64,000 nt of DNA from Minutocellus sp. GHC0000111 (GCA_977018835.1 OZ361256.1:6820001-6884000), one strand, 5' to 3'; positions 16,886 to 63,729 are shown, counted from the stretch's first letter. Numbers and translations are program-made. Notes: a model not told the origin generated them from the letters alone.

Positions 16886-17111
16886 GATCGCGATTAGGCC
16901 TTTGGCGATAGGGGGCGCAACCAGGGGCCGGAAGGGGGCGCGCCCCCGGGGGGCGCCCCCCACGCGTTGTAACTACTAACAAATTAGCCATAGATACCCA
17001 TGACCCAGATATTGTCACTAACTAACACCGTGTTGACCTCAGGCTGAGCTGACAGAGCAGTTTGGGGGGCGCGCCCCCGAGCCCCCTATCGCCAAAGGCC
17101 TAATCGCGATC
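16886..17111. repeat. 226-bp element bounded by perfect 31-bp inverted repeats (MITE-like or cruciform)
   Basis: gatcgcgattaggcctttggcgatagggggc (16886-16916) is the reverse complement of 17081-17111. Internal gggggcgcgccccc palindromes occur near both arms. Confidence 0.85.
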
Positions 17112-17235
17112 GCGAGATCGCGAGAGCCCAAAAATGCAAAAACAGAATAAGAACGCATGCGCATAGGCGAGGCAGCAGGAATGGAGCAGGAATGGATCGC
17201 CGACGCCACATTGCCGCTGAGTACTACGAAGCTAC

Positions 17236-18459
17236 GTGGCACCACGCCACGCCACAGAACCAATGAGAATCATCAACCGATTCTGTTGCTCTGGCTGCGG
17301 TAACATGCGATACGTGGACCTGGGAAAGTCCCGCTGCCTGACCGGAAACACATTTGGATACGCAGTGGGAAGCTCCCCATCCAAGATCGGCGACGAGATG
17401 TTGGGGGTGTTCTGCGAGATCTGTCAGGGTCTCACGAGCTGTGGATCCAGCTGTGCAGCGATAGAGCCATGCAGTACTTGCAGCATCTGGCGTTGTGATT
17501 CCTGTGCTATGCGATGCCCATGCGCGACGCTGAGCCACGACGATTTTGCGTCGTGCATCCACAAGGCAGCGAATGAGATCTCGGACAGAGGTCTAGAGGG
17601 ACTCGAGGATTCTCCGGCCTTCAAAAAAGGAAACAACAGCCTCCCTAGACTTGAAGTCAAAAATGGATGCGGTCGTTCCCAGTGCATGGCCATGTATGGA
17701 CGAACGCTGACGAGGCCTTTTCACGACGTGATGACGTTTGTCCAGCGCCGCCACCCCCAAGTGTCGGTTTTCGTGGATATCGGATCCGGCCTGGGGATCC
17801 AGGCCATGCAGGCGGCAGCGTGCTTTGGCATGAATTCCCGCGGGGTTGAGATAATGAGGGAGAGAAGCTCTCAAGCGAACAAGTTGTTCCAACACTTCGT
17901 GGAACTGCTTGACCTGGACATGCAGGAAAAGATGGCGCACGTTTCCTTGACGTGGGATGACTTTACCCGAGCGGCAGGACCAAGCGGAGACCAAGAATTG
18001 CTTTCTTTTTTGCTCGGAGGAACCGACAATGCAAAAGGTACGTCTGCTCCCTCCTTGATATTCTGCAACAATGCTGAGGACGTTTTTGGTCCCAGAAGCA
18101 GAAAAATTGGCCACAGGTCGCTGGACCAGCAGTTGGCAGAACTGCTGTGTTGAGCGTCAGCCGGAACGTGCCTCCTAACGGTGAATGACGTATGCCCATA
18201 CCTTGGCGGCGACGAGAGTTGGTACAGCAAGGAGAAAATCATCACGTCTTCCGCCGCCGTATCATGGACGACAAACCCCGTTACTCTACACCTTGTGAAA
18301 AAGAAAGACGAGGCGTGGGTTTGCTCGTGCCGTCACGTCAACCCACTCATCGACGATTTCACTGGCAGTGTGGTGCACCGCTGTTCTAAATGCCAGGTGG
18401 TGCCACTGCCGATGCGAACCAGATCGGCTGCTTGTGAGATTGCATCGACAAAGGTTTGA
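17236..18459 (+). pseudogene. DOT1-like histone H3K79 methyltransferase with an in-frame TGA at 18151-18153
   Basis: YGR, FVDIGSGLGIQAMQAA (SAM motif I), SRGVEIM and LIFCNNAEDVFG; Cys-rich N- and C-termini. ORF 18181-18459 continues in the same frame after the stop. Confidence 0.7.
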
Positions 18460-20399: not shown

Positions 20400-21008
20400 G
20401 GCGACGAGAGGGCACACGGCAGCACTCAGATGAAAAGAAGCCACCAAATTATGATTCGATTCTGCGTGCGTGTGAGCAGGAATTCCCTGCCAGAACAACT
20501 CGACTGGGTCGTCTTTATACTGCAAAATGGAACGAGCAACCCTTTCTTCTTATTGTCTTCGGACCCCCCCCCCCCCCCCCCGGCCCCGCAACCCGCAACC
20601 CGCAACAAGGAATGAGAACGAACAGTCGTAATCTGCAGAGCCGCCTGTGCCGTCCAGCGTCCAGCCGTCCCGCGCGCCACCGCTCATCACGCACCCGCCC
20701 GCCCAACCGTGTTCCCAGTTTCGAAGTTCAACAATGCGTCATCAGGAAAGCGGCGTGACGCGCGCCTGGGTGGCGTGGCACATTCTAATATTCTACTACT
20801 AGTACGTACCAAGGTAGTACCTAGGTATTCTCATTCGATCATTCTTCGCCATGTCGATCGGGAGAAACATGCTACGTAGCATGGAATATGGAATACGAAC
20901 GCCAGAACGCCAGATTGCGGCCATGCCCTTTACCGAGCACACACAATCGGCGGTAGAGCAATTTGCTCAAAGCAATGTTGTTGGAACGCAACCAAGCGCA
21001 AAGGACCA

Positions 21009-24000
21009 ATGGACGACACTTCGGTCACAGACGCTGGCAATGGCGGAGATCGTCGCGCCTCGTTAACCCACAGAGACCTCGGTACCCCGACCCAAGTCGG
21101 CGAACGATTCCTACGCATCTTTCTCGATTCGCCGCACTATCATCGGGCTCTGATGGAATTGCTCCAGGCAGATCCCAGCCTGGCCAAGGACTTTTCGCTG
21201 GAGATCGACATGACCGAACTGAGTCAACGGGATCCCGAGCTGGGCATCGTGCTTCTGCGGTGTCCCTCGACGTTGCTTCGCCTGCTGGAGGACGTCATCG
21301 TAGAAGCGCAGAATGCAGTAAAATCGAAGGCGGAGAGCCAGATGCTCAGCGATCTGGCACCACAGCCACACCCAATGAACCTCACCGTCAAGGGCGAAAA
21401 GGGAAGTCGGTCCGGCGATGCTGCTAATATCACCCCCAACCGCATCCACGCTCGTCTCACCCATCTCCCGCCCCACCCCACCCACTGCAAACCGTCAATC
21501 TCTCGTCTCAACGCCACTGACACCAACAAGATCATCCAGATAGCCGGCACCGTCACCAGGACCTCGGGCGTGTGCATGTACGAATCCGCACGCTCGTACC
21601 AATGCTGCGATCAGAAGAGTGGATGCGGCGGCGCCACCAAATTCAGAATATACGCGGACATGCAACAACACAACAACGCGCTGCCGAAGCCCACCATGTG
21701 TCCCGGTCAGGATTCCGACGGCAACCCATGCGGAAGCAACAAATTTGTCGAGTTGGAGGACATGTCGGTCCACACCGATTACCAAGAAATCAAGATCCAG
21801 GAGAGCAGAGGCCAGAGCGGCGGGAGCAGGACCGGATCTGCTCCTCGTAGCCTGCTCGTCAAGTGCCAGCACGATCTTGTCAATCGATGCCAACCCGGTG
21901 ACGAGGTCGTGGTGGTCGGCACCCTGATCAGCCAATGGCAGCCCTTGGTCGCCGGCCAAGGCGGGGACGCGGGCGTGGCACTCGACGCGAATTCCATCCG
22001 CGTCGTCAATGCCGAGGACAGCCCCAGAAAGGCTCACCCCATTGCCGCACGGAACAAGACATGCCGATCAGTTTGTCCTCGGCTGTACGGGATGAGCACG
22101 ATAAAGCTGGCTCTGTTGGTCACACTCATTGGTGGTGCTGCCCAGGATAATACTGCCATTCACGATAGATCCACCGAATCGGAGGATGATGGCTCGTCCA
22201 ACACCATTCTGGGAGAGGCAGACGACGCCACCGGCACGGACAACAGACCGAAGCAGTTCAAGACCTCCTTCCATACCCTACACAAAGATCGGCGCAAGTC
22301 CAAATCGGTCCAGACCCGACGGAGGGACCAATCCCACATGTTGCTGGTTGGTGAGTTCTGCTTTTTTTTTTTGCCAAAACTCATTTCGTTAGCTCTTAGC
22401 TATTGTATTAGCCATTGCATTTGCATCATCCATGATTTTGACACCTTGAGACTTACAATAAACCACCCATACATCTCTAACCCTTTCCTTCTCTCTCTCT
22501 CCCTCTCTCTCCCACCTACCCGTACATGTATATACTTTCTCCGCCCCCTCCATTCCCTCTCGACTGCTCCCTGCACTTATCTCACACCAAAGGTGATCCG
22601 GGCACCGGTAAATCTCAGTTTCTGCGCTTCGCCGCAGCGCTGTGCCCCCGAAGCGTAATGACGACCGGCACCGGTACCACCTCGGCTGGTCTTACCTGTG
22701 CCGCCGTACGGGAGGGCAACCAAGGAGAATATCAGTTGGAGGCGGGGGCCCTGGTCCTTGCCGACAAGGGCGTTTGCTGCATCGACGAATTTGGCTGCAT
22801 CCGATCAGAGGAGCGCACGGCAATTCACGAGGCAATGGAGCAACAGACGTTGTCGGTCGCCAAGGCCGGCATCGTTGCCAAATTGAACTGTCGAGCCACG
22901 GTGATCGCCGTCACAAACGCCAAAGGAGGCCTCTACGATCACGGCAAGACCCTCACGGAGAACACTGGGATCGAATCCCCACTGATGTCTCGCTTCGATC
23001 TGGTGTTTCGTCTGGTCGACGAAGGCGACTCGATACGGGATGAGAAGGTGGCAACCTTCCTGCTAAACAAGGCCATCGTGGGACCTTCCTGCCATTCTTC
23101 TACCCCTAATGGCACGACCGAATCAACCCAAGGGGATTACTGGTCGATGGAGAAGCTCCGCATCTACATCGCCACGGTCCAGTCTCGATTCCGCCCAGCA
23201 GTGAACAACGAAGCTGTGAAACTCCTCAAGGCGCACTACCAAGCCTGCCGAGCAAGCATGTCTCAGACTACCTCAATAACGGTGCGCTTCCTGGAGTCGC
23301 TCATTCGATTGTCACAGGCTCACGCCCGGCTCATGTATCGCAGTCAGGTCACCCTTCACGATGCCGCCGCCGCAATTCTGCTCATGGAGTGCAGCGCCGG
23401 CTGCCTAGACGGCATCGAGCAAAGTCGGGCTCCTTTCACCACCGATGATGACTATCGGCCCCTCTACAGAGACCCCATGGTCACTATTTTTCCCGATGAC
23501 GACGTGGCGGATATTGAATTTCTATGCGACGAGTACATACTGCTTGACCGATATGACATGGTATTTCGTCTATCAGAAGAGGAACGCGAAACTGCGGCGG
23601 CACATCTCCGGAAGCATCGACGCAGTCCCGGCGATCAAGATAGACCTAATCCCAACGAAGTCGACGAGAACAACAACGTAAGAGTACAAGACGACGACAC
23701 TGAAGATGGCAATGGTGGAGGGGGCGCTAACCAAGATGGAGGCGGTCTTGCCACCGGCGGCGAGGGGAATAGGAGAAATACCACTCGAGGAGCACACCGA
23801 AATGCAGGCCACCAAGACAAATCACTTGTGCGTGGACGATCAGCAACTATCAGCGAATATGCCTATGGAAATTTTATTCAGCCATCGGCAACCACCACCC
23901 AATGCCCACCCACCGGTATCGAGCGGACTGAATTGACGGCACAGAGACCGATAGCTCGGCCTCGAGGCAACGCTAGTCAACGTATTTGCAACACAGGTCA

Positions 24001-24172
24001 AGGCATCTGTCCAGAACCGAATTCCCCTAACCCTTCCTCCTTCCCCTGGACAAGTCCACCGCCACACCGATTACCCGCGTCAGACGAAATAGTAGGTTTT
24101 GCCAAGCCACCATGGACTCCACACAGCAACATCAATGAGAGTCCTAAGCGCAGGAGGCGCACGGCCGACTGA
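21009..24172 (+). CDS. MCM9: MCM9-like helicase; exons 21009-22350 and 22593-24172
   Basis: N-terminal Zn/OB region (YQEIKIQE, CQPGDEV). The splice builds Walker A LLVGDPGTGKSQ. Also TSAGLTCA, LEAGALVLADKGVCCIDEF, SRFD and TVRFLESLIRLSQAHARLM, with a long disordered tail. IDEF and the tail favour MCM9. Confidence 0.85.
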
Positions 24173-25676: not shown

Positions 25677-25819
25677 GGAACACCACATCTTTGTCCCCTG
25701 AAAATACACTTGTTGTCTCACCGTGTGCGCATTACATGCACATGCATGCATGCATGTGTGCATGTCGCTTGGCATGTCGTTACAACCTCAATTAAACATA
25801 AAACACAAATATATGTACA

Positions 25820-26760
25820 TTGTTTAACCGCGATGATGCCATCAGAGCTACAAAACTTATCGTCTCCCATTTCAAGCGATTCGGCCTGACAGTACATACC
25901 GGTAGTAGATCCCTCGGAGAAGGCTCCAAGACAGAAGCCCTGTACATCCCGCCACCTAGGAAGGAATCGCACACCAAGGAGGAGCTACTGGTAGCAACTG
26001 GAGACATTGTTATCGACGACGACCGACACATATCGTACACCGATGAATTCGGCAGCCTGCTTGAGAAGCAACTGAACGATATTGTTGATATAAATGCCAG
26101 AATCAAGCAAGCCAAAGGCCAATTCCAAGCGATGAGAGATAATGTCTTCACCAACCAAGGATATACCACTACCCGAGCGACTACGATACTACAATGCCCT
26201 CGCCGATGACACAGTTCTATGGGGATGCGAAAGCTGGGCGCACAAACCATCACTGATCAAAAAGCTAGAGTCCATGCATCACAACTGCCTCCGTCAAATC
26301 ATTGGGTACAACTTCTACCGGGACGGTAAAGTCACAAACGAAGAAATTAGAGCTGAAGCTCTTAGTGCCTATACGATGGAAACCAATCTAGAACTAAGGA
26401 GATGCAGATGGCTAGAGAAGATTGCAAACATGGGAGAAAACAGACTGCCTAGCTAGAAAATTATTTGGAGCCTTCTGCCATGGAAAATCTAGACGACGCG
26501 GCAAAGCCAAAGTCACAATTCGACATGGATGCCGTGACACTCTAGAGAAAGTAGGCTTCGGATCTAGAGCAAACGACCTAAGTGAATGGATACCAGCTGC
26601 CAGAGATCCAGTTCTACGGGTTGAAATAGTGGAGTATCGACTAGGATTAGACGACGATTTCTGATACTATTTTCGGTTGCTACAGCGGATTTTACATTTA
26701 GAGATTAGGGAACTCAAGCCCAATAACCTAGGCGAGTACTCATCATCATCATCATCATCA
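25820..26760 (+). mobile_element. 5'-truncated, frameshifted non-LTR retrotransposon (RTE-like), copy 1
   Basis: RT C-terminal/thumb motifs FGLTVH...SKTEA, DINARIKQA, VLWGCESW, HHNCLRQI and RRCRWL; ends in a (CAT)n tail at about 26741-26760. Confidence 0.8.
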
Positions 26761-26902
26761 CATGGCCGGCATCACTCCTGGAGTCGTCAGCAAACCAGAT
26801 GTTGATGTGAGTGTGTTGCCAGTGCCATTGTCACCTACATGTACACTACCAACACACAAATTGTACCAATCACGGCGATTGGAGTAGAATGGGATCTCGA
26901 GA

Positions 26903-27646
26903 TTAGAAGGCGATGCCATCCTGAAAGGTCTTAATCTTGTATTCTTGCCACTTGGTCTCGGCCGACATTTCACGCTCCACCGACGACAGCACTCGTTGAA
27001 TGACATCCTCTTCGACCTCTCCCTCACGGCAACCCAACTCGGCTTCCTTCTCCAGCATTTCTTCCGTCGGCGCATCGGATACGGGAATGGGGGGCCCATT
27101 GTTCATTGCGATATTGTGCTCGGCTTCTACTTTGCTCACCAGGCCAAAGAACTCGGATCTATGGCGCAGCATCATCTTTGTCATCTCCTTTTCATGGATA
27201 TTCATGAGAGCAATCAGCCGGCTATTTGGAGACTCGATCAATGTGCGAGCAGCCTCGTCATCGCCACCACGACCCTGCTCTTTGGAGCGCCTTACAGTCG
27301 CGCTTCTGATGCCCTCGGTCACTTCTCGAGCGGTGCCACCGACGAGGACGTCGGTGCTTACACTGCGGGTGGTGGCACCAGTGGCACCATCGCTACCATC
27401 ACGATGATCGACTTGGGCGCCTCCCACCTTCTCGACTTCCATGACAAGCCGTCTCGGGCTGTATCCAAGGGGATAGGACTCATTTATGAGCCATCTGCAA
27501 TACTTTAGACAGTCGGTTATGGCCCTTCGCTCGGTGCGCAGTTCCTTGAACGCTTTCATTGCGCGAAGACGATCCTGCTTGGTCACCGCCACCACCGATG
27601 GCTGGATACATGTAGACCTATCGCCACGAGCAGGAGCAAGAGGCAT
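26903..27646 (-). CDS. Hypothetical protein, copy 1
   Basis: 247-aa ORF; no recognisable domain. Confidence 0.4.
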   Translation of the reverse strand: MPLAPARGDRSTCIQPSVVAVTKQDRLRAMKAFKELRTERRAITDCLKYCRWLINESYPLGYSPRRLVMEVEKVGGAQVDHRDGSDGATGATTRSVSTDVLVGGTAREVTEGIRSATVRRSKEQGRGGDDEAARTLIESPNSRLIALMNIHEKEMTKMMLRHRSEFFGLVSKVEAEHNIAMNNGPPIPVSDAPTEEMLEKEAELGCREGEVEEDVIQRVLSSVEREMSAETKWQEYKIKTFQDGIAF

Positions 27647-27851
27647 TCTGCGGTACGGATTAGTGACGGGTCAATGCTCCTAGCTAATATTGATAATATA
27701 TGCTCAACAACTGCGCTGCTCGATTTAGGAGAAACAAGTTCCTGCTGGATGCTTCTGCACTCTGGCTCATTACGAACTCGTATGAACGAGCGGAAAGACA
27801 CCAGGTGACGAGGAAAGCGGAAATTAAACATAAAACACAAATATATGTACA

Positions 27852-28792
27852 TTGTTTAACCGCGATGATGCCATCAGAGCTACAAAACTTATCGTCTCCC
27901 ATTTCAAGCGATTCGGCCTGACAGTACATACCGGTAGTAGATCCCTCGGAGAAGGCTCCAAGACAGAAGCCCTGTACATCCCGCCACCTAGGAAGGAATC
28001 GCACACCAAGGAGGAGCTACTGGTAGCAACTGGAGACATTGTTATCGACGACGACCGACACATATCGTACACCGATGAATTCGGCAGCCTGCTTGAGAAG
28101 CAACTGAACGATATTGTTGATATAAATGCCAGAATCAAGCAAGCCAAAGGCCAATTCCAAGCGATGAGAGATAATGTCTTCACCAACCAAGGATATACCA
28201 CTACCCGAGCGACTACGATACTACAATGCCCTCGCCGATGACACAGTTCTATGGGGATGCGAAAGCTGGGCGCACAAACCATCACTGATCAAAAAGCTAG
28301 AGTCCATGCATCACAACTGCCTCCGTCAAATCATTGGGTACAACTTCTACCGGGACGGTAAAGTCACAAACGAAGAAATTAGAGCTGAAGCTCTTAGTGC
28401 CTATACGATGGAAACCAATCTAGAACTAAGGAGATGCAGATGGCTAGAGAAGATTGCAAACATGGGAGAAAACAGACTGCCTAGCTAGAAAATTATTTGG
28501 AGCCTTCTGCCATGGAAAATCTAGACGACGCGGCAAAGCCAAAGTCACAATTCGACATGGATGCCGTGACACTCTAGAGAAAGTAGGCTTCGGATCTAGA
28601 GCAAACGACCTAAGTGAATGGATACCAGCTGCCAGAGATCCAGTTCTACGGGTTGAAATAGTGGAGTATCGACTAGGATTAGACGACGATTTCTGATACT
28701 ATTTTCGGTTGCTACAGCGGATTTTACATTTAGAGATTAGGGAACTCAAGCCCAATAACCTAGGCGAGTACTCATCATCATCATCATCATCA
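27852..28792 (+). mobile_element. Same non-LTR remnant, copy 2
   Basis: Same ORFs as copy 1 at +2032. Confidence 0.8.
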
Positions 28793-28934
28793 CATGGCCG
28801 GCATCACTCCTGGAGTCGTCAGCAAACCAGATGTTGATGTGAGTGTGTTGCCAGTGCCATTGTCACCTACATGTACACTACCAACACACAAATTGTACCA
28901 ATCACGGCGATTGGAGTAGAATGGGATCTCGAGA

Positions 28935-29678
28935 TTAGAAGGCGATGCCATCCTGAAAGGTCTTAATCTTGTATTCTTGCCACTTGGTCTCGGCCGACAT
29001 TTCACGCTCCACCGACGACAGCACTCGTTGAATGACATCCTCTTCGACCTCTCCCTCACGGCAACCCAACTCGGCTTCCTTCTCCAGCATTTCTTCCGTC
29101 GGCGCATCGGATACGGGAATGGGGGGCCCATTGTTCATTGCGATATTGTGCTCGGCTTCTACTTTGCTCACCAGGCCAAAGAACTCGGATCTATGGCGCA
29201 GCATCATCTTTGTCATCTCCTTTTCATGGATATTCATGAGAGCAATCAGCCGGCTATTTGGAGACTCGATCAATGTGCGAGCAGCCTCGTCATCGCCACC
29301 ACGACCCTGCTCTTTGGAGCGCCTTACAGTCGCGCTTCTGATGCCCTCGGTCACTTCTCGAGCGGTGCCACCGACGAGGACGTCGGTGCTTACACTGCGG
29401 GTGGTGGCACCAGTGGCACCATCGCTACCATCACGATGATCGACTTGGGCGCCTCCCACCTTCTCGACTTCCATGACAAGCCGTCTCGGGCTGTATCCAA
29501 GGGGATAGGACTCATTTATGAGCCATCTGCAATACTTTAGACAGTCGGTTATGGCCCTTCGCTCGGTGCGCAGTTCCTTGAACGCTTTCATTGCGCGAAG
29601 ACGATCCTGCTTGGTCACCGCCACCACCGATGGCTGGATACATGTAGACCTATCGCCACGAGCAGGAGCAAGAGGCAT
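28935..29678 (-). CDS. Hypothetical protein, copy 2
   Basis: Identical translation to 26903-27646. Confidence 0.4.
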   Translation of the reverse strand: MPLAPARGDRSTCIQPSVVAVTKQDRLRAMKAFKELRTERRAITDCLKYCRWLINESYPLGYSPRRLVMEVEKVGGAQVDHRDGSDGATGATTRSVSTDVLVGGTAREVTEGIRSATVRRSKEQGRGGDDEAARTLIESPNSRLIALMNIHEKEMTKMMLRHRSEFFGLVSKVEAEHNIAMNNGPPIPVSDAPTEEMLEKEAELGCREGEVEEDVIQRVLSSVEREMSAETKWQEYKIKTFQDGIAF

Positions 29679-29967
29679 TCTGCGGTACGGATTAGTGACG
29701 GGTCAATGCTCCTAGCTAATATTGATAATATATGCTCAACAACTGCGCTGCTCGATTTAGGAGAAACAAGTTCCTGCTGGATGCTTCTGCACTCTGGCTC
29801 ATTACGAACTCGTATGAACGAGCGGAAAGACACCAGGTGACGAGGAAAGCGGAAAAGGCCGCTCTCTCAAAAAAGGAATAGGAACGGCGCTTTCACACCA
29901 ACAAGTCAATTCCCAGCGCTTTGCATGAGTCATTGAATCGTCTCATACTTTTCACCAACATTCTACC

Positions 29968-36006: not shown

Positions 36007-36290
36007 TTCTCGTCTTCACAACGTGGAGTTCCGTCAAAAAATATATAATCTAAGCGGCACTACTGGTACTGCCGCTCATGCGGGTACTACCGATGCATCT
36101 ACAATCGGCACTTCTTTGGTTGGTAATACCACTAAGGACAACACCGAGGGTAACGATGATGATATAAATGCATTGCTCAAAGAAATAGAGGAGGAAGATG
36201 AGGAGGATGAAGAATCCGGAACAAATATAGGATCCACTACACAAGCATAAGATAGATCTATGTTCGTGCCTACCCTGTGGCTCATAAATA

Positions 36291-36850
36291 TATATGTTAG
36301 TCCCAAAATGCGCACTGTCCCAGTTCGCGAACTGGGATCCCAGTTTGCGAACTGGGATTTATTTATCCCAGTTTGGAAACTGGGATCACAGGCACAATCT
36401 CAGTTTGCAAACTGGGATCGATCGAGAAATAATGAATATTTTGCAAGGATGATATCGCCTTCGCTTCTCCTCGCTTCATTTTTTAATTTGCAAATTCAAG
36501 ATGTGATGCACAGTGCAACTTGTATTGTAGATAGATCTACCAGTACATGTACAAAATAGTCGTTGTGCATGAGCCAACACCGGCGCGGCAGTGACCATTC
36601 TGGCACTTGCCGAGAACACCAGTTTCCAAACTGGTATTTATTATTGTTCCAGTTCGCGAACTCGTCTGGTTCCCATATTCGGATTAGCTTATTTATCTCA
36701 GTTTACATTCTGGTAGTATCAGTGCGCAAACTGGGATCCTAGTTTGGGAACTGGGGCCCAGTGCGCAAACTGGGATAAATGAATCTCAGTTCGCAAACTG
36801 GGATCCCAGTTCGCGAACTGGGACAGTGCGCATTTTGGGACTAACATATA
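36291..36850. mobile_element. Non-autonomous TIR element (MITE), 560 bp
   Basis: tatatgttagtcccaaaatgcgcactgtcccagttcgcgaactggg... is mirrored at the right end (about 64 bp perfect, about 95 bp imperfect). TA/TATA ends; many internal cccagttNgcNaactggg palindromes. Confidence 0.9.
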
Positions 36851-36877
36851 GATCTAGCAGAGGTCAAATTTTATAAT

Positions 36878-41417: not shown

Positions 41418-41878
41418 TGTTGCCAAATTGGTACTGGTATTGTATGGAGGCAGTGATCGGACGATATTTGTGGGTACCACACGGTGGGGATGAGCTGGCG
41501 ACGGGGTTAGCAGCAGGCACTAAAACTGCATTCCTGTAGTGCCCAGTTTTTCTGCTGACCACCACCTTCGCCTCCTCTCGTCTCAACTGACCAAGCCACA
41601 ACCATCTGCGATTGCTGCCGTTGCAATTGCTAAGTCAGCTTACAGTACCGGCTCCCAGAGCCTGTCTCTCTCTCTCTCTCTCAGTAGTTAGTTAGTTTTA
41701 GCATTAGGTTGGTGCTACTCTACGAGTTCGTAATTGTTATTGGCCGACGACACACCACACCACCACACTGCTGTTAGTCCAGAGACCGCAGTCGACTCCG
41801 GAGTCAAACGGCCACGGCTCAGCTCCGTTGATAGTGCACGTAGATCCGACACCAGTCTCTACGACGGCAGAACAGTGC

Positions 41879-43307
41879 ATGGCCGAACCAGATCGACCGG
41901 AACTGGATCACGTGTTGTTCGGAGTGGCAAGAGACTTCATCGTCCGAGGAGACTCTCCTGACCTTCCACAAGGCTGGGACAGACTCAGACGTCAGATTCG
42001 GCCCGGGCGCAGAAGTTTCTTCACAGCCAGGGCGTCTTCCGAGAGACTGACCACAGACGCACTGGATTGGTGGAAAAGTTTTGCCGAGGGCCGAATCGAC
42101 GTTACCGAGTACCTCACCGATCTCGTCGAGCGCGCCACAGGCTACCTCCCATCGAGAGCCACGGGGCACCAGCCATCCCCAGCAGCAGCCGTTTCACACC
42201 TTACTCCAGTAGCGCACGGTCTGGTCGCCGAGTACCTCGAGCAACAAGCCTTCTTGGTGTCACCGGACTGGCCCACGTACCTCGTCAACATCTGGCTGAT
42301 AGCCACGCGCCTTGCTTACCGAGCCTGAGATCCGCCGGGCACACGAGACGGCAACTGAGTTGGACCTGAGCAGTGCACTGTGCCGACTACCACGGGCAGA
42401 CGGAGGCGTCGTGGTTCAACAGTATCGGGGGCGAAGGTGTCCGGAGGCATCGGTAGCAGCAGCGCGGCAACACCATTGCATCTGGCCCCAGCTCTGCCGG
42501 CTCACGCAGTGCATCCTCCACCACCAGGCCGACCGAAAAGAAAGACGGCGCATCGCGGCCAGAGAGGGCAGACCTCTAGAGCCGACACCGTGCGCTTGCA
42601 TAGGTTCACGGGGGAGCGAGCTTCCACCAACGCTGCCGCTCACTTATTTCGAGTGGGAGGTAAGGTCACTCTTCTACCCACGTGACGCACACGACCGAAC
42701 CGAGCGGGCTGGCGTCAGTGTGGCATTGGAGCGAGGAGATCTCATCGGCCCTTTCGCCCTGATCACCCAGTTCCCGCTGGATTCGCCGCACCCGTTCCAG
42801 AGACGGCAGCACCTACGACCGGACCAACTCACTGAAGCTATCATCAACTGGGACAGTGGATTCGAGAGCCTCACCAGCGCTCGACTCCGACACACTCGGC
42901 CTGACAGCAATCCTCTTGGACACCGAGTGGAGGTCAACCCGTACGAATGCTGGGGAAGGCTGGCAGACCTAACGGCGTCCCCCTCACACCGCTGGGTAGG
43001 CACCTGCCATCGAGTCTATCCGAGGTGGCTAGACGATGCGGCCGATCCAAATCGCTGGGAGGGTGCCCACTACCGCGTCTGGCCAAGAGCATCAATTCAC
43101 CGGCGCCCCGACGATCTCGAGGCACCTGTCCGCCTGCGAGATATCACCGCCGATATTTTGGTATCAGAGCCACCGCGTCAGGCATTCAACATCCTTCTAT
43201 CCGCCTTTGGAGAGCCCGACATCGCCGACCGCATCCTCACCCTCACGGCCGATCTGAACCACATCCAGCGCCGAGAGGACCGACGCCGAAGGCGACAGGC
43301 AAGGTGA
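41879..43307 (+). pseudogene. Frameshifted orphan ORF at the 5' end of the DIRS-like element
   Basis: ORFs 41828-42328 and 42312-43307 abut, with a frame change near 42320. Confidence 0.4.
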
Positions 43308-43323
43308 TCGAGCATTGATCACC

Positions 43324-45350
43324 ATGGCTTCATCTTTCAACACCTGGAAGTCAGTCCTACTGGCACAAGAGATGCCGGCCGGGGCCGACGCCGCCGTAGC
43401 TCGAGATTTCCAGAGATTCCTCGCCGACAACGTCTGTGAAACCGACCCCACGGCCGCTGTGGTCCAGAGCCATGCCCGAGCGATCCAGCAGCAAATCCGC
43501 GACGCCGAGGGTTTGTCCATGCTGGCCCACCATCCAGAAGGGAAAGTCGTGGTGATTCACCATGCCGTGGCTCAGGGAGGCACCACCATGCAGCCCGACC
43601 TCAGGTTGGGTGGGCTCCTCGGGATCGACGATGTAGCCCCGGCAACGTCGTTGGCCCAACCTAGCCTCTTGCGGCACAAGGAGGTCCTAGCCCCATCGGT
43701 GGAAGCCATGCTGGGGGCACACCGTCAGAAGCAGCCCTAACCGGTCTCACCCAGGAAGGCTCCAACACCCGCCACTGGAGTGCCTCCACGAAGTTTAAGT
43801 CCCTTGTGCTGCTGCCACCTTCGATTCTGCAGAATGTTCTGGAAGAGCACGAGGCATCGCCTTGGGCCATCCTGTCCGCCGGCAGCGACGACGCATCAGA
43901 CAGCGGTGACGACGAGGGTCATGGCGCAGCAGGTCTTCGCTCCAATGAGGCTGTTCAACACGTCGTCAAGTGGCTGTGGTTCGTCGCCACGTCCGAGCAA
44001 GGTGACATCCCGGCCGTCAGCTTGCACCCAACGTAGGACCCGGCTCTCAAGACACACGCCCGTGAGATGCACGCTCGGCACATCACTGGCGCCAGTGGCG
44101 ACGGACCACCAGCCGGTGGCGCCCCGACCGACTCTGCAGTCACCACCGCGGCCAACGCCATGACTAGGGCCGCGTCCGAAGCATCCTCCCTCACCGGCGC
44201 AGTCATGGCCTACACTGACAAGGTCGACAAGAAGCACTCGATGAATGGCGCCATCCTCAAGGCCTGTGCCGCTTTCTGCCGGGTCTCGACCGAGCATGAC
44301 GATGATGTAGCAGCGATCGACTCGAATCTTCCCGAAGGATTGAAAGCACTGCTGGAAGAGTCAAACCTCACGCAAGCAGCCGTCGGCCTCGAGCTGCATG
44401 TAAAGGGCAAGACCGGAGTCAGGACATCTCTCCAGGGCCTCACCACTTACGTCCGCCTCTTTGGCTTCGGGAAGAGCGACAAGAAAATCTACGATGGCTT
44501 CTCTGTCTTCGCCTTTAGCCCGGTAAACTCCAGCAGCAGCAATGCGCCCCTGTGCCTCGCCGCCTCTCAAAAGAAAGGACATGCCTCGACTCAGGTGAAG
44601 GCTCTTCTGAAGCAGAGCTACCGGTCCCCAACCGAGCACGACGGTGCCAAACGTCACATCTCGGCCTTCGGCGCTGGCGTTTCCTTCCTTGCCGGAGAGG
44701 ACTCCGAGCCCGCTCGCTACGTCGCCAGGGTCCTCAGTCACATGAAGACACACGAGGACCAGTGCCGCGACATCTCCGAGAGCCATGGCGAGAAGTTCTG
44801 GCTGGCGATGTTCCACAATGTCGACGCCTCCATCCATGCATTCTGGAAAGCTTGTCTCCGTTCCCCCGACGACGCTGGCAACGACCTCTCTTGCTTCTCA
44901 ATGGCCGACGAGTCCAAAAAGACAATGAAGACTCAGAATCCTTTCGTCTATCCCAGCCACATCAAGCTCGTCCAATCGGCTGACGCTCCCACCCCTTCCT
45001 CGGATTCCGACTCCGACAAATCAGAGCCAAGAACCAGTCCGAAAAAGAAGCAAAAGACGGGCGGCGCCAGCGGCAGAGCCCACCAGCACGAACACTTCGT
45101 CACGTTCGACATCAACCCCGGCAACTTTGCAAAACGGCATGGCAATAAATCCGAGCCCTATGAGGACAGACCTGAAATTAATGGCTGTAAATTCTGCCCT
45201 CCATTCATCCTGATGGGTGTCTGCGGCGCCGGATCCTCGTGTGAGCTCAAGAAGTCCCATGTCAAGAGGCCTCTTAAGGCATCGGAGAGAGGACCCGTCG
45301 AGCAGCACGTCGAGAAATGCGATCGGAAGTACGAGGAGGCGGAGGAATGA
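43324..45350 (+). pseudogene. gag-like ORF1 of the DIRS-like element
   Basis: Broken ORFs 43315-43740, 43806-44036 and 44067-45350; terminal CPPFILMGVCGAGSSCELKKSH (CCCH-type). Confidence 0.6.
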
Positions 45351-46213
45351 CGGATCGGGTGGGCACGGAGGCGTGGCCCACCCTCGGAGGATGCTGGAGA
45401 AACATTTTGGCCAGCCGGCCGAGCTCGTCCCTCCAAGCGCCGTCGAGTGCAGCCAGACACGTCGGCGTCGATCCGCCCCGGTGGCTCCAGCCGCCCAAGG
45501 TTGTCCGGCACCCCAAAATCCGGCGTGTGCGGTCGCAACGACATCAGCAACCAATCCAGGCTCTCCGGTGCCCCTAATGCCGGAGCAGAAGGCCGAGGCG
45601 TTAGCAGTGACCTTCGGTCGGGTCCTGGTCCCCCTAACACCAGCGGTGATGCCTCTGCGCCGACAACAGCATCTCAGGCTCTGGCTCCAGCACCACTAAC
45701 GCTGGCGGTGCGGAAGCCACCGACAACCTCTTCGACCGGCTAGGCCAGCGAGAGAAGGATCTCCTAGGTAAGCAGCCCCAACCCGAAGCACAGTCCCCCC
45801 CTGGTTCCCCTACGCACAGCAAGGAAGCAGAACCGACACGCCAAAATGGTGAGTGAGACCAACAGGTGAAGAAACACCTACAACAAACGGGGCAGCCCAG
45901 CGCCCACAATGGGCCCACCACGGTCGGACAGACCCGCATGCTCGTGAACGTGCAGCATGCACATGTCTCACCTTTTTCTCGCCTTGTGCAATTCCACGTG
46001 GGAACTAGAGCCCATCTTCGATGTTTCCACCTTGGCACAGCACGTCCGACGAGCAGTCGAGTCCCCGTCGGCCACACCGAAGCCCACGGAGTTCAGATTT
46101 GAGCTCTTGACGGAGGCCGCCGGAGTCTTCTGGAGCCGATTCTTGGCCGGCACCCGCTGTGGCCCCGCTTCCGCTCCATTCTCGACAGTGGATCCGACTG
46201 GGCCCTCGATCCG

Positions 46214-47960
46214 GTGAGCGACGAAAGCAGACTGGACAGCGTGACAAAGAACATCGGCCGAGGCAACCACAAATCGGCCAGGGATAGGCCGGAGGCACTC
46301 AAGGACCAAGTTCTCGACGACGTGACCCGCTGTTTCGCCCTCCCTCTGCCAGCAAAGGTCGCGCCCCTCATTCCTGGAGCGGAGGTGGCTCCGATGGGTT
46401 TGGCAGCACAGAACACGATCAGCGAGGTCATGCCCAAGGACCGCCTGACTCACGACCAATCCTTCGAGATCGGCACCGCACGGTCCGTCAACAACAGAGC
46501 ACGCATGGAGGACCACCAGCCAGTGGTGTTCGGCCATGCCCTCCGGCGAGTGATCCACTGCATCGTAGACGCCCGTCACAAGCATCCCCGCACTTCCATC
46601 CTCCTGCAGAAGGTCGATTTCAAGGCTGCGTGTCGCCGGGCCCACTTGGCTCCCAGCACGGCCGTCAAAACGATCACCACCCTGGATGGCATTGCCCTCA
46701 TGTCCCTCCGGCTGACTTTCGGCGGCCGCCCTTGCCCGAGCGAATGGTGCAACATGTCCGAATCGGCGGCCGACCTGGCCAGGGCCCTCCTGCAATGCTC
46801 GGACTGGGACCCGTCAGAGCTCCATGGCCCCCAGCAGAAGCACTTGGGTCGCCCCAAGGTGGAGGGCGACGATGTGCCGTTCGCGCCGGCCCTGGACATG
46901 ATCGCAACCCTTCCCGACAACAAGGATGGCATCGTCGAGCCGCACGTCAATGACCTCATCGCCGCAGCCCCTGACCTGGGCGACAACAAGGATCGGATGT
47001 CCGCTGCCACCCTCCTCGCCATCCACGCGCTTGGCCGACCGGTGTCCGATAGCGAGCCACTGCCCAGAGATGACCTTGCCTCCATCAAGAAGCTGCTCGC
47101 CGAGGGGACGCCTTCCGAAGTGCTGTGTCTCTTGGGGTGGGATGCTGATGCCCGGCGGCTCCTGCTGAGGCTCCCTTGGAGCAAGTGCCTGGCCTGGCGC
47201 GATGACGTGCTTCGGCTCCTCAGAGCCCGCGGCGCCACCAGATCAGAGCTGGACACCTTGGTCGGAAGGCTAAACCACGTCGGACACATCATTCCAGCCG
47301 CACGACACTTCCTCAGCCGCCTTCGGGATCGGCTCTGGAAGGCCCGCCGCCACGGCCGCCAACGGTTCGACTCTGAGGATGCAGAAGACCTCAACCCATG
47401 GCTCCGCTTCCTCCGAAGGGCCTGGGGCACGAGTGCATGAGTGACGAATGCGAGCACGGCATCGGCGGATGGTCCTCGTCCGGCAGAGCGTGGAGATTTG
47501 CCCTCCCCGAGGAGCTGTGGGGCCGGTTCACCCTCAATTGCCTGGAGTTCCTCGCCGCCGTCATCGGCCCATGGATCGACCACATCGAGGGCAACCTGCC
47601 AACCCTCTCCTGCGTGCTGTCGGGGACCGACAGCACCACGGCCGAGGGATGGCTCAGGAAGTCGAACTTTGTGTCTCACGGCGAGAAGGATGCCGACGTA
47701 GCGGCCAAGCTGGCCACGGCGCGGAAGCTAGCCGACACACTCATCGAGACCAACACCATGCTGTGCTCACAGTGGTTCCAGGGGAAGCGCAATCCGGAGG
47801 CCGACTCTCTTTCTCGTGACACCGATCTCTCTGATGCTGACCTCACGAAATTGCTTCTGTCATCTCCCGAATGTCAGCTTCCCTCAAATTTCAGGATTGC
47901 ACCACTACCCAACGAGATTGCTTCCTGGATTGTCTCGCAGGCGAGGACGCTGCCCGTCAG
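46214..47960 (+). pseudogene. Reverse transcriptase + RNase H (inactivated)
   Basis: RLTHDQSF, KVDFKAACRR, LRLTFGGRPCP, HVND at the YxDD position (46943-46954) and LGW. RNase H motifs NCLEFLA, TDSTTA and GKRNPEADSLSR follow a frameshift near 47430. Confidence 0.85.
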
Positions 47961-48645
47961 GAAGCAGTCACAACGGCCACTGCCGAGAAGCACGCTCTCG
48001 CGTGGAGCCGCTGGACTGAGTTCCTGCAGCTCATCGGGACCGGGGACGACGTCTTCCTCGACAAGGCATCACCCCGAGACCGAACAGTCATTCTCGGCGC
48101 CTTTGCCCACGCCGTCCGACAGGCCAGCTTTTCGGGGCCAAAGCTTTCGCGACTGGCTGCGTCGACGGTCCGAGACACCGTCTCATGTGCATGCTCGTCC
48201 TTCCGGCACAACCAGCGCAGGGACCCAGGGAAAGACGACATTGGCCAGCCTTCATTCCTTCTGCAGCGGCAGTTCCGAGGACACAGCCAGTCCGACCCGG
48301 CCGAGCGGCCGGAGAAGGCGATCACCTGCCGGCTCCTCCGAGAGATCGCCTCCGTCAGGGAAACGGAAGAGGACCGTGCAGTCGGGCAACTAGCCGTCGG
48401 CGCCTTCTTCTTCGCGATGAGGTCTTGCGAATGCTCCAGAGTCAGCGGTGAGCGCAGGACCAAGCTGCTCCGCCTCCGCAACATCCAGTTCTACCGCGGC
48501 TGACGGCGCATGTGTCACAACGACCGGTCCCTCCTCTCAGCAGACTCTGTCTCCGTCACCTTTGAGTTCCAGAAGAACGACGAGCGTGACGTCACGATTA
48601 CGCAACACTACACCCACGACGCCACCCTCTGCCCAGTTCGAGCTT
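47871..48645 (+). pseudogene. Tyrosine recombinase of the DIRS-like element (in-frame stop at 48501-48503; C-terminal catalytic half missing)
   Basis: GAFFFAMRSCEC (first catalytic Arg), then VTFEFQKNDE...LCPVRA; no HxxR or Tyr region follows. Confidence 0.8.
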
Positions 48646-48650
48646 CCCAC

Positions 48651-48792
48651 CCTGGTTTTGGTTGCTGGTGGTGCCTCGCTGGACCAACGGTGCTCCTAAA
48701 TCGTTGGCAAAACGTGTCACCCTTGCCCTTGCCGTTGCGAGGTCTAGATGTGCTCCCCCATTGTGTGTCAAAACGTCTACCGGCCCATTTGC
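48651..48792. repeat. 142-bp dispersed direct repeat, copy A
   Basis: Matches 58256-58397, differing at four sites by my alignment. Confidence 0.9.
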
Positions 48793-48799
48793 TGGCTGT

Positions 48800-49482
48800 T
48801 TTGTCTCCGAATTCCAACCATCCGTCCCCAACATCGGCCGCTTCTACATGTGTTGCCAGACGATTCAGAACCCCCGGCTCTGCGTCAGCCTCACTGACGT
48901 AACCTCCGTGGGGGGACAAAATGCAGCTCTTTGCCCCCGACGATTCGAATCCATGCGACGTCGAAGCCACCCTGAACCGATGCAGTTGGGGGTGTTGTGG
49001 CAGGGCCAACCTTCCACTTTGTCTCAACTCGCTCGACGCGAGTGCTGCCCTTGTTGGTGGTTGTGGGATCTTCAGCATTGCTCTCATTGTTTGCTTCGGA
49101 GAGAGGTGCCGTCGCCGTGTGACATGCGATGGAAATGAAAAGCTGCCGGGTGAGCGAATCACCTACCACCTATCATGAGAATTCATTTTGGCTGTCTTTC
49201 GTGGTGGTCTAGACCAACGGCGGCGTTGTCGTTACTGGAATGCATGCCTGTTCCGCCAAAGATGGTGGAGAAAAGCAGCAAGCAGTGTGTGATCGGGAGT
49301 TCTTCGGGCACATCCAATGCTTGCTTACCATGGTAGTAGGCTAGGAATTTCCTACTACGTAGTATGCCGTGCAAATGCGAGGAAAGAGTGGCGAGGCAGG
49401 TGGCTGAATGAAGATCTTTCCTGGCCCGCGGCACAAGCAACAAGATCGTCGCTGTGGCCCTTTTGGGGGTCATTTTGGCCAT
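48800..49482 (-). pseudogene. Fragment of a GDSL/PC-esterase (TBL-like) gene
   Basis: VGDSLTRQLFISIAC motif; upstream fragments are in broken frames. Confidence 0.45.
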
Positions 49483-57493: not shown

Positions 57494-58255
57494 GGTTTAG
57501 CTATCAATAGGTATCCCTGTTCAATACATGTACACAAGACGTGCGTGTTGGGTTTTCGTCGAGCAAGTGGATCTGCAGTGGCTAGCGATCCGCTGCAGCA
57601 AAGAGGTATCCCGGTGCCCACGGGCCGCGGCTGCTAATCAGAAGCAATAATAAGCGGCAGAGCGATCGGCGGCAGGCAGGATCCGCGTGACCGTGTCGTG
57701 TCGTCATGGTTGCGTTGAGGAACGGGGCGGGTAACCTGGTCCCGTGGCGGGATCAATTATTTATGAGCAGGCAGGAGATTCCCCGAAATTTCAAAAATGA
57801 AATTTTGGCCCCCTGAATTCTATAAAAAATGAAAATTCCGAAGCAATCGGCATCATCCTGGATGCGGGCATCAGCTTCTTTGCCAAAGCAATCAATTGAC
57901 GTGATCATCGTTCTCTTCCACGAAATAGAACTCCCTTTTTTGGTCAGACCAGGGAACGAACCGAAAGAAGAGCAAAAGCGAACGGAGCAGCGCATCTCTC
58001 TCCCTCTCTCTCTCTTCACACACGTCTGCCCACCACCACCAAGCAAAAGCGGAAGAACAAAAAACATCAAGCCACCACCGCATCGTATTTCCGCCCTTGG
58101 ATTTGTGCCTATATCCTCAACACATTGTGGGCGGCGACTGGATCACATTGCCCGTCAGGAGTATCGAAATGCTGTGTGGGAGCAGTGACATGTGCCACCT
58201 TTGTTCTTCTTGCGCTTGTGAATTCACTCCTCCTTTTTCCTTCCTTCCCACCCTG

Positions 58256-58397
58256 CCTGGTTTTGGTTGCTGGTGGCACCTCGCTGGACCAACGGTGCTC
58301 CTAAATCGTTGGCAAAACGTGTCACCCTTGCCCTTGCCGATGCGAGGTCTAGATGTACTCCCCCATTGTGTGTCAAAACGTCTGCCGGCCCATTTGC
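58256..58397. repeat. 142-bp dispersed direct repeat, copy B
   Basis: Matches 48651-48792. Confidence 0.9.
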
Positions 58398-61670: not shown

Positions 61671-62570
61671 TCAGCACTTCATTTCGATTACTAAGTCTTC
61701 GGCCTGAGTATGTTTTTCTCTCTCCTCACTCTTGACCTTTTTCTGAGCCTCATGACAAAGCCGATAAGCCTTATTCAGATATTCCTTGCTGATAAACTCT
61801 TCTCCGGGAATCTTGCTTTCGGCATTGAAAATATATGTCAATTTATCGAGGGACAACTGGTTGCCAGCCTCGGCTGCAATTTTCCAATGGTGGATTGCTA
61901 CTTCGTGGTTGCCTTTCCCGTATTCCGAAGAACCGAGATAATGCCGAGAAATAATATCTCCTCGCAGTGCACCGACTCGGTACAGTAAAAGGGTCCTTTC
62001 TTTATCAACAGAAACTCCAACGCCTCTTTTATAACTCACCGAAAGAAAACCACATGCCCGTGCATTACCAAGTTCGGCAGCACGAATCCAACAATCAACC
62101 CCCCTCAGGATATCTCTCTTCACAACTTTATGCTTGATACCAGATACTGGGTTCGAAGGTGTCTCGCCCGATTCAAAATACATCCCTAGTAAACACCATG
62201 CCAAGGGATCGTCTTTCTTTGCTCTTGTTTCGAGCTGTCGCACGCACTCCTCACCAGACTGCGGCTCTACTTCTCGGCAAAAGGGACACACCTGTTCCGT
62301 TTGCTTATCGACGAATTTCTGGCTTTCTCCCATACAACCCTCACAAATTGCCTTTCCACAGCATGCCTTATAGTCTACCTGCGTGCTGATGCGCGAAAGG
62401 GGTACAAGACAGATGGGGCAGTCCTCAGTTGGTGGGAGCGGGGCGAACAGGTCGGCACCCTCGAGTTCCTTCTCGAGCTTCACCACGAGTGCATCCAGAC
62501 GCTTGCCGATCTCCTTTGGCGTTAGCTTCTTCGGCCTGCCGGCCTGCGCCTTCTTGCCCTTCTTGCCCAT
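61671..62570 (-). CDS. RING-finger + Sel1-repeat protein
   Basis: EDCPICLVP...ACCGKAICEGC...CPFCR followed by Sel1-like repeats (HWKIAAEAG). Confidence 0.85.
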   Translation of the reverse strand: MGKKGKKAQAGRPKKLTPKEIGKRLDALVVKLEKELEGADLFAPLPPTEDCPICLVPLSRISTQVDYKACCGKAICEGCMGESQKFVDKQTEQVCPFCREVEPQSGEECVRQLETRAKKDDPLAWCLLGMYFESGETPSNPVSGIKHKVVKRDILRGVDCWIRAAELGNARACGFLSVSYKRGVGVSVDKERTLLLYRVGALRGDIISRHYLGSSEYGKGNHEVAIHHWKIAAEAGNQLSLDKLTYIFNAESKIPGEEFISKEYLNKAYRLCHEAQKKVKSEEREKHTQAEDLVIEMKC

Positions 62571-62862
62571 CGTAATGCTGGGATAACGGCGAAATGCAGC
62601 TCTTCGGTGCCGATTACTGGCTGGCTGGGGCCGAGAGTACTCGAATCGACTCGACTCCTCGCCTCGACTCTACGAATTCATGAATTCATGGCGTGGCCAC
62701 GGTGGCGCGCGGCGTGTGGCCGGCGTGGCTCGTAAAAAGATACCCGGAGGCCGACTTTTGAACGAAATGCTGATGAGAAAATAAAAAATCAAGATACGGT
62801 GTGCCGAATTATAAATTGAGAGTGCAAGAGTACCACGAAGAAGCAGGACATACGAAACCGCG

Positions 62863-63729
62863 ATGGGTAAGAAAGGCAAGAAAGCGCAGGCCGGCAAGCC
62901 GAAGAAACTCACGCCAAAGGATGTCGGGAAGCGGCTCGATGCCTTGGTGAAGAAACTCGGGGTGGAGCTTAAGGGTGCCGACCTATTTGCTCCACCTACA
63001 CCAGAAACGGAGGATTGCCCCATCTGCCTTGTTCCTTTCTCGCGTGCCAACATGGGCCACGTCGCATTTTGGGCCTGCTGTGGGAAGAAAGTTTGTATTG
63101 GTTGCAATGGCGAAAAGGATGCCTTTCTTGAACCAGGCAGCGACCCATTGTGCCCGTTTTGTAGGACACCTTTGGCGAGCTCAAAGCAGTGGCTTGGTCA
63201 GATGGAGGCAAGAGCCGCCAAAAATGATGCATACGCTTTGTACAATTTAGGAAGCGTTTTCCTGATGGGCACTCATCATCAGCCCAAGGACGAGCTCAGA
63301 GCACTGTGGTATTACACCCAGGCTACCGAGCTCGGCTCAGCGGGAGCGTGCGGAAGTATTTCATACTGTTATCAGAGCGGTAAAGGAGTGAGTGTGAATC
63401 TCGAGAGATCCATGTTCTTCCTTGGAGCAGCTGCATTCAAGGGGAATCTTGATTGTCGACACAACCTTGGCCGCTACAAGTATTCCTTACTTGGTAACCA
63501 CGAGAGCGCAATCCGCCATTGGAAGATTTCAGCCGAAGCTGGTATGCAGCGGTCCTTAGATGAACTCACGAATATTTTCAAAGCAGACGGCCAACTTCCT
63601 GGCAAAGAGCATATCGGTCAGCAGCTCCTCGATGAGGTGTCTCGAGCATGCCAGCAGGCCCAAGAGCGAGTCAAGAGTGAGGAGAGGGAGAAGCACAAGG
63701 GAGATGAAATTGTTTTCAAATACATGTAA
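62863..63729 (+). CDS. RING-finger + Sel1-repeat protein (divergent paralogue)
   Basis: Same architecture and a near-identical MGKKGKKAQAG.PKKLTPK N-terminus. Confidence 0.85.
   Translation: MGKKGKKAQAGKPKKLTPKDVGKRLDALVKKLGVELKGADLFAPPTPETEDCPICLVPFSRANMGHVAFWACCGKKVCIGCNGEKDAFLEPGSDPLCPFCRTPLASSKQWLGQMEARAAKNDAYALYNLGSVFLMGTHHQPKDELRALWYYTQATELGSAGACGSISYCYQSGKGVSVNLERSMFFLGAAAFKGNLDCRHNLGRYKYSLLGNHESAIRHWKISAEAGMQRSLDELTNIFKADGQLPGKEHIGQQLLDEVSRACQQAQERVKSEEREKHKGDEIVFKYM

Follow-up and report, generated by a model that had tools for sequence, protein, structure and literature searches.

The question raised by this locus is how dozens of copies of a mobile element can have lost almost every TpA with a purine before it and a pyrimidine after it, and with these sites conserved tyrosine codons, when the genes around it are normal in this respect. 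The locus lies in a stretch of 64,000 nucleotides from Minutocellus sp. GHC0000111 (GCA_977018835.1 OZ361256.1:6820001-6884000), the whole of which is called the window here, and the element is a broken, 3'-truncated Ngaro-like (DIRS order) tyrosine-recombinase retrotransposon on the + strand at 41597-48792, both ends being approximate. The host is a cymatosiroid diatom; the eIF2A gene adjoining the element has diatom relatives, the closest named one, 80% identical, being that of Extubocellulus spinifer (Cymatosiraceae). The element has been subject to a TpA-specific process changing A:T to G:C on both strands, which is near saturation and, within the window, is limited to the element. A TA site of the element ends up as either TG or CA, single copies contain both products, and the sites are unlinked.

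Loss of TpA and the direction of change

The initial annotation of this DNA had counted only nine TpA in 46201-48500, none of them in a DTAH context (D, not C; H, not G), with CpG still abundant. The recount gave the same result: each of the nine has C before it or G after it, the ratio of observed to expected (o/e) TpA is 0.12 and that for CpG is 0.92. The run without DTAH (no strand assigned) extends over 2.8 kb, 45770-48598, and contains 12 surviving TpA, all CTA or TAG, while the second-longest such gap in the window is 634 nt. Host segments of equal length and matched GC content (57 overlapping segments, GC 0.59-0.67) contained 27-60 DTAH each. The probability of finding none when 27 are expected is 2e-12, and that of nine out of nine surviving TpA being non-DTAH, given the host share of 0.587, is 3.5e-4. 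This control, together with the GTAC and ATAC sites retained in the Sec10 region, upholds the statement of the initial annotation that GC content alone is insufficient and argues against a bias in composition. The consequences for the encoded proteins had also been read correctly. There is no Tyr in the open reading frames (ORFs) for reverse transcriptase (RT, 408 aa) and RNase H (331 aa) and one in that for the tyrosine recombinase (YR), and the codons at four motif positions are CAC (46943), TGT (46631), TGC (48432) and TGC (47764). The bounds first given for the depletion, 45350-48600, enclose depleted sequence but not all of it. The whole zone depleted of RTAY (R, purine; Y, pyrimidine; no strand assigned) spans 43163-49362, where a single site (45330) is left in 6.2 kb as compared to 11.3 per kb in host DNA, and so passes the apparent 3' end of the element by ~570 nt (48793-49362). 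The loss in these last ~570 nt represents either spreading or another repeat. Tested within this one window, the loss of TpA was restricted to the mobile element and the host genes were normal.

The tallies over sister copies rest on protein records, 36 for RT and 21 for the gag-like protein. The RT search gave 47 matches, 10 of them close, and a cluster listing added more (15 of the 31 members of the largest cluster). Removing from the 43 close records the element's own ORF, two same-contig duplicates, one distant sequence and three lacking the RT-frame columns left the 36. The gag records include 15 listed members of a largest cluster of 57. The records are spread over many contigs, and some of either set may be fragments of one copy, or alleles. 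Searches for sister copies at the DNA level gave 103 pattern matches in metagenome contigs and three in viral contigs, none of which was confirmed. Amino-acid differences private to one copy were rare, 66 of 8974 cells in RT and 0.6% in gag; thus the family is young and has recently expanded from a TA-intact source (0.6-0.7% private differences). A second allele in at least two copies was found at 28 RT columns, 25 of which fit a TA origin. At the conserved RT tyrosine columns no Tyr was left, the residues being Cys and His in numbers of 23 and 3 (46631), 7 and 21 (46943), 8 and 11 (47186) and 7 and 10 (47285). When contigs from four sequencing runs were compared with the window copy, the 40 rows listed (of 111) included eight CA/TG doublet swaps, in DNA and RNA runs alike. 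Four lower-share runs gave thin pieces (depth ~2-10) with the same CA/TG swaps, uninformative on the absence of an intact version.

The changed codons had been taken in the initial annotation to be ancestral Tyr codons, altered from TA to CA and TG and not through an effect at CpG, and the outgroups agree. In the relative P0203 (gag, 88% identical) all 16 Tyr-type sites within its range read Tyr and both Ile-type sites read Ile. Among distant RT homologs, 32 of 34 rows carry Tyr at 46631 and all 35 carry either Tyr (23) or Phe (12) at 46943, Tyr is found in 115 of 129 YR rows at 48432, and at 47764 the motif reads LYSQW in P0010, LFSQW in P0009 and LHSQW in the sister copy P0007. CpG also decays to CA or TG, and 22 of the 28 variable RT columns would fit a CG origin as well if the outgroups were ignored. 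However, Arg is absent at these positions from the outgroups and from the copies that escaped conversion, all of which have Tyr or Ile. No cell in any copy has Arg at a Tyr-type column, the RT segment still contains 115 CpG, and CpG o/e is 0.9. The finding of Tyr at all 16 gag sites of P0203 shows that the ancestral base pair was TA and not CG. Some decay of methylated CpG is likely all the same, as C>T at CpG (16 in 3077 site-copies) was ~5-6 times other C>T in the copies. The initial annotation had set two outcomes against itself, namely intact family members also lacking these tyrosines and copies showing no excess of substitution at TA; what was found was Tyr in the 88%-identical relative and variation among the copies concentrated at TA sites.

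Flank preference and independence between copies

Conversion was scored at Tyr and ATA-Ile sites, where survival and both products are visible. RTAY was retained in 4 of 300 copy-sites (20 sites), or in 4 of 219 at the 15 sites with outside polarity, TTAY/RTAA in 23 of 53 (three sites) and CTAY/RTAG in 69 of 112 (eight sites), the last class being converted in 38% of copy-sites. Column 46556 was left out of the CTAY/RTAG tally, the outgroups having His there. Comparison of RTAY with CTAY/RTAG gave a Fisher p of 3e-43 with copy-sites as the cells. In the mixed classes the strand struck was usually the one reading TAY, 23 of 30 times in TTAY/RTAA and 36 of 43 times in CTAY/RTAG. YTAR was struck at 2 of 129 visible opportunities, scored at ten sites still in the window copy, a set biased to slow sites. 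The per-strand rates, obtained from a modest number of sites, decrease in the order RTAY (~2.1), TTAY (0.64), CTAY (0.41), RTAA (0.19), RTAG (0.08) and YTAR (~0.02). At 11 of 13 untied sites TAYY was converted in preference to TAYR (p 0.02), which tentatively refines the flank rule. The initial annotation had proposed DTAH as the target, with CTA and TAG spared. RTAY is indeed struck most strongly and describes the target better than DTAH does, but CTA and TAG are not immune, TA having also been lost in sister copies at the CTA/TAG-class sites 46285, 47050 and 47907, and TTA and TAA are slow too. For other adenines the per-strand rate was 0.0036 (26 A>G events after A, C or G in 7305 site-copies). 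The RTAY rate is therefore ~600 times that of other adenines, and it is ~400 times that of CpG decay, values which were obtained in the same copies and are relative, not per generation.

The copies were found to vary independently of one another. Among pairs of RT sites, 120 of 128 showed all four gametes and 3 of 128 were associated at p<0.05, which is below the chance expectation; among pairs of gag sites the numbers were 16 of 25 and one. Both TG and CA were present in 24 of 25 RT copies, using five sites of which one (46997) is without outgroup polarity, and in 16 of 18 gag copies. Given the lack of linkage and the presence of both products per copy, it is likely that each copy was mutated separately, as DNA, on either strand and after insertion. 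The claim in the initial annotation of a process on both strands at the DNA level is thus supported, as it is by the CA/TG doublet swaps in the contigs. The same 24 copies contradict a one-strand polarity of the ADAR type, as does the strand reading TAG being the slowest (7 strikes as compared to 36); ADAR prefers G after the edited A. The spread of slow-site loss among copies was borderline (permutation p 0.06, n=12) and its correlation with background divergence was weak (rho 0.25, p 0.43), hence a clock-like exposure is not shown.

Possible agents and related systems

Recent spread from a TA-intact source, unlinked change of TA to TG or CA and action on chromosomal double-stranded DNA are, taken jointly, very probable. 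That the chemistry is furthermore that of a host TadA/ADAT-type deaminase, converting the A of TpA to inosine, is cautiously favoured. The copies have had their TA steps replaced by TG or CA several hundred times faster than the background, likely copy by copy after insertion; in such a scheme the A of either strand would be struck once on chromosomal double-stranded DNA, after which the site would no longer be TpA and would not change further. The mutator may be aimed at silenced or foreign chromatin, since neighbouring host genes retain their sites, and it would kill the element, since its favoured targets include the Tyr codons of conserved motifs such as YxDD. The agent would be a host enzyme acting on the DNA of the element, most likely a TadA/ADAT-type deaminase, and it is predicted to be a tRNA-deaminase-like protein acting on exposed single strands. 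The preference for a 5' T and the best motif, TAY, of TadA-derived editors (PMC10879117) resemble the flank rule found here, and adenine base editors favour a preceding T, with higher activity when C follows and lower when A follows (PMC8989541). These editors are engineered proteins with a much looser requirement for TA, and no preference for a purine two bases upstream is noted in these accounts of them.

Several points weigh against this reading. The natural substrate of TadA and ADAT enzymes is tRNA. In engineered editors the preference for TA within their window amounts to tens of percent (PMC8989541), well below the several-hundred-fold preference here. The flank ranks are mirror images of each other (R>T>C before, Y>A>G after), and recognition of a duplex step or of thymine would account for this equally well. 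The RTAY products are slightly skewed, 129 TG to 167 CA (p 0.03 if the cells are independent). Most tallies are based on protein, where synonymous sites are invisible, the slow classes comprise eight and three sites, and for 5 of the 20 RTAY sites the polarity depends solely on the two-way split (4 of 219 kept without them). TpA is retained in the window by a perfect tandem duplication of 2034 nt and by a YR-like ORF, so that some repeats and mobile-looking genes escape. Recombination among copies could also remove linkage, although it would leave unexplained the near restriction of shared variation to TA sites. The support comes from the sequences of the copies, an enzyme, a modified base or a de novo mutation not having been observed.

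The initial annotation had stated that no description of such a process in diatoms was known, and no diatom report of TpA or RIP-like (repeat-induced point mutation) hypermutation was found in the literature searched, in which subscription papers were thinly covered. The process itself does have a precedent, in the chlorarachniophyte Bigelowiella natans. In mutation-accumulation lines of this rhizarian, two regions of integrated viral DNA acquired 231 de novo mutations, nearly all of them A:T to G:C at TpA and at ~1000 times the background rate (Mettrop et al., bioRxiv 10.64898/2026.01.13.699255). RT and DDE domains were enriched among its TpA-poor genes and an ADAT2-like deaminase was proposed as a candidate (bioRxiv 10.64898/2026.01.13.699255). 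The main text of that preprint gives no flank rule and does not mention diatoms, stramenopiles, flanking bases, trinucleotides, thymine or 5-hydroxymethyluracil (5hmU). The two cases are alike in the change of A:T to G:C at TpA only, in the formation of both TpG and CpA, in being local to foreign or mobile DNA (nucleocytoplasmic large DNA virus and virophage DNA in B. natans; the element, within one window, here) and in a rate far above background, by some three orders of magnitude there and by ~600-fold, in relative terms, here. They differ in the host and in the stage reached, the B. natans mutations being de novo and far from saturation in a single-copy virus, whereas the diatom copies are those of a saturated high-copy retrotransposon. 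As background, mutation-accumulation lines of the diatom Phaeodactylum are reported to show the usual GC-to-AT bias (PMC6604790).

Fungal RIP changes C to T at CpA and so creates TpA; it is premeiotic, is triggered by duplicated sequence and requires RID/DNMT4. The loss in the diatom resembles RIP as known in Neurospora and other Pezizomycotina (RID/DNMT4) in its dense dinucleotide-specific transitions on both strands of a repeat and in the destruction of transposon genes, but it is not RIP because the direction is reversed, TA being lost rather than created. A trigger by duplication, as might be supposed from the element being multi-copy, must be set against the tandem pair of 2034-nt units in the window, 100% identical, which retains 66 RTAY but could be of very recent origin or an artefact of assembly. 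Of 60 diatom species, 31 are reported to encode a DNMT4 related to RID, whose function is not known and which Phaeodactylum lacks (PMC9998398); it is a lead for the targeting rather than evidence.

The same targeted process on DNA could have its lesion on thymine, a TET/JBP-type dioxygenase oxidising the T of R-T-A to 5hmU and then to 5-formyluracil (5fU), which pairs with G. This is the main rival, though unlikely: its products would be identical to those of adenine deamination, and, as seen from T, the strongest flank effect is that of the immediate 5' neighbour, a purine. Dinoflagellates, which like diatoms and chlorarachniophytes belong to the stramenopile-alveolate-rhizarian (SAR) group, have TET/JBP homologs making 5hmU from the T of A:T pairs with enrichment in repeats and transposons, TA and TC reportedly being preferred in Crypthecodinium (PMC11572971), and ionised 5fU pairs with G and is read as a T-to-C change (PMC11071213). 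Against this, 5hmU is described in Breviolum as having no sequence preference, and TC sites are not converted in the element (A>G after G, 5 events in 3296 site-copies). The main text on dinoflagellates does not contain the word diatom; it treats 5hmU as a silencing mark and not as a mutator (PMC11572971). No comparable run-down of T to C is mentioned in these accounts for dinoflagellates, in which 5hmU amounts to 12-68%.

Error-prone repair synthesis of the polymerase-eta type (WA to WG; W, A or T), concentrated on heterochromatic repeats, is improbable. The A-to-G errors of polymerase eta occur preferentially after T or A, and A>G after A was indeed the highest class outside TA (9 in 1248 site-copies, 5 of the 9 from two columns), but TA was struck ~300 times as often as AA per strand, the Tyr columns are almost without transversions and the Lys and Asn codons are intact. 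Similarly improbable is editing during retrotransposition, with A-to-I editing of RNA giving TG and deamination of single-stranded cDNA giving CA so that copies arrive mutated. It would account for the independence between copies, DIRS elements amplify via linear single-stranded cDNA (PMC7192593), and all of the polarised data come from one retroelement family. It requires, however, two near-saturating steps obeying one flank rule on opposite strands, whereas the strikes track the TAY strand (36:7 and 23:7), and TAG is slowest despite being the 3'-G context that ADAR favours. The same change occurs de novo in integrated DNA viruses in the B. natans preprint, and the block at 1851-4200 described below, in which no RT was seen, has the same pattern of survivors, though unpolarised. 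Methylated-CpG decay, GC-biased conversion, codon or composition bias and selection against TA are very improbable given the outgroups and GC-matched controls above, and given also that selection cannot favour loss of the YxDD Tyr and that conversion would homogenise sites rather than split them. Polymerase-eta errors, editing during retrotransposition and CpG decay thus all fit poorly.

If the favoured deamination of adenine, or else thymine oxidation, operates here, then diatoms and chlorarachniophytes may share an ancient SAR genome defence in which silenced mobile DNA is sought out and mutated to saturation by a natural deaminase of DNA adenine with high specificity for TpA, or by a mutator that oxidises thymine, a suggestion which is possible rather than probable. 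Such a shared pathway would be the mirror image of RIP, with RTAY as its fingerprint, and could yield a natural A-to-G editor of DNA, of interest for base editing. In fungi, C-to-T chemistry is an established means of programmed transposon mutation, and its A:T to G:C equivalent has so far been one preprint on one rhizarian. The diatom locus adds a new host phylum, a high-copy retrotransposon as the target, saturation copy by copy and a ranking of flanks by which candidate enzymes may be judged. GC-rich, tyrosine-poor repeats in diatom assemblies would become easier to explain, and the process implies that transposon dating and consensus building are distorted, the majority consensus being itself dead.

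Anatomy of the element and neighbouring sequences

Contigs of sister copies stack from ~41500-41700 to 48645 in four of four sequencing runs. The 5' part of the element (41699-43162, + strand) is weakly depleted, retaining seven RTAY with a TpA o/e of 0.65. TA is retained there in the majority of sister copies at 41850, 42522 and 42592, where the window copy has lost it, and most sister copies likewise retain TA at 45579; the intensity of mutation thus varies along the element. Summed contig depth over 42000-43250 in run X6 was ~10 times that over pol and more TpA was retained, which hints at a shorter non-autonomous derivative. The gag-like ORF1 follows at 43324-45350 (+ strand), with a frameshift near 43718 and a stop at 44034, and contains most of the scored Tyr sites. 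It reads through in the sister copies P0202 and P0211 and is probably gag, judging from its position and from the C-terminal CCCH zinc finger (E 3e-4) of the distant homolog P0224.

The RT region (45963-47440, + strand) has HVND in place of YxDD (46943), KAAC in place of KxAY (46631) and a ~103-nt deletion at 46122. A model of the intact homolog P0017 (42% identical; predicted local distance difference test score, pLDDT, 83) matched the RT folds of Moloney murine leukaemia virus, foamy virus and Ty3 with E of 2e-11 to 4e-9, and it is this predicted fold that would identify the region as RT. RNase H (47428-47970, + strand), with LCSQW at 47764, is labelled from position and motifs. In the window copy it is separated from RT by a short deletion at 47422-47428, with loose contig ends at 47422/47428, and the two are continuous in the sister copies P0056 and P0079. 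Only the N-terminal part of YR is present (47841-48645, + strand; RSCEC at 48432), the catalytic C-terminus being missing from the window copy while sister copies extend beyond 48645. The YR search gave 996 relatives at E up to 0.001, and the full-length ones have HSxRSG and RWxSDxFLRY motifs and a weak Phage_integrase match (best E 0.0013). Pfam searches at E 0.1 found no family in the ORFs of the element apart from an irrelevant NapD match and none in the RT homologs, and a sequence search of solved structures gave nothing useful for its proteins.

The order gag, RT-RNase H and YR on one strand, with YR recognised from the homolog motifs and weak Pfam match and gag from position, is the Ngaro arrangement, and the element appears Ngaro-like from this order. 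Ngaro elements are not known to have a methyltransferase domain. A single contig links 48792 to 41597, as expected of a split-repeat junction, but it is only a hint, the complete set of split repeats (A1-ORFs-B1A2B2) not being present in the window copy. Ngaro elements of Cafeteria burkhardae (PMC8547959) are similar in ORF order on one strand, length (6-7 kb) and GC-richness, and differ from the present sequence family in that the latter so far matches diatom and unnamed records, with split direct repeats only hinted at. A 150-nt repeat at 48643-48792 (+ strand) has a second copy, 94% identical, at 58244-58397, and three of the four substitution events between them are at TpA or are TG/CA swaps. 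It is likely to be the element's own terminal repeat; an assignment to a second family was dropped as a contig connects the repeat to the 5' end of the element. The solo copy at 58244-58397 lies directly upstream of an Ataxin-2-like gene and retains one GTAC.

Most of 151 YR relatives are normal, with a median of 2.3% Tyr. The exceptions include P0270 (36% identical, on a 5-kb contig), with no Tyr in 402 residues and Cys at the catalytic position, and the distant P0288, with His there.

Elsewhere in the window, the block at 1851-4200 has TpA o/e of 0.22-0.29, the survivors being mostly YTAR, and CpG o/e of 0.22-0.28. Within it, 1851-3430 has one RTAY and 13 YTAR (CpG o/e 0.28), unpolarised without copies. 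It looks like an older repeat struck by both TpA and CpG processes. An ORF at its end (4196-4921) gave a weak ubiquitin-like match (E 6e-4). Head to head with this block is an open 450-aa ORF on the other strand (1-1407, -) with tyrosine-recombinase-like motifs by eye, perhaps Crypton-like, in which TpA and CpG are intact; it has no Pfam match and a single-sequence model of 1-1356 was unusable (pLDDT 35). The tandem duplication mentioned above is head to tail at 25790-29855 and contains short ORFs, one of which resembles by eye the tail of a non-long-terminal-repeat RT; should the duplication be real, it would serve well as a negative control. Inverted-repeat elements resembling miniature inverted-repeat transposable elements are found at 36285-36856 (100-nt arms, 93%; TpA retained) and 16886-17111 (31-nt arms, 100%), and an inverted pair of diverged Sel1-repeat genes at 61674-63726. 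The window also contains two MCM helicase loci (6239-7306 and 20880-24169), a primase-like ORF with a Herpes_UL52 match (14826-16169) and a DOT1-like methyltransferase (17221-18150).

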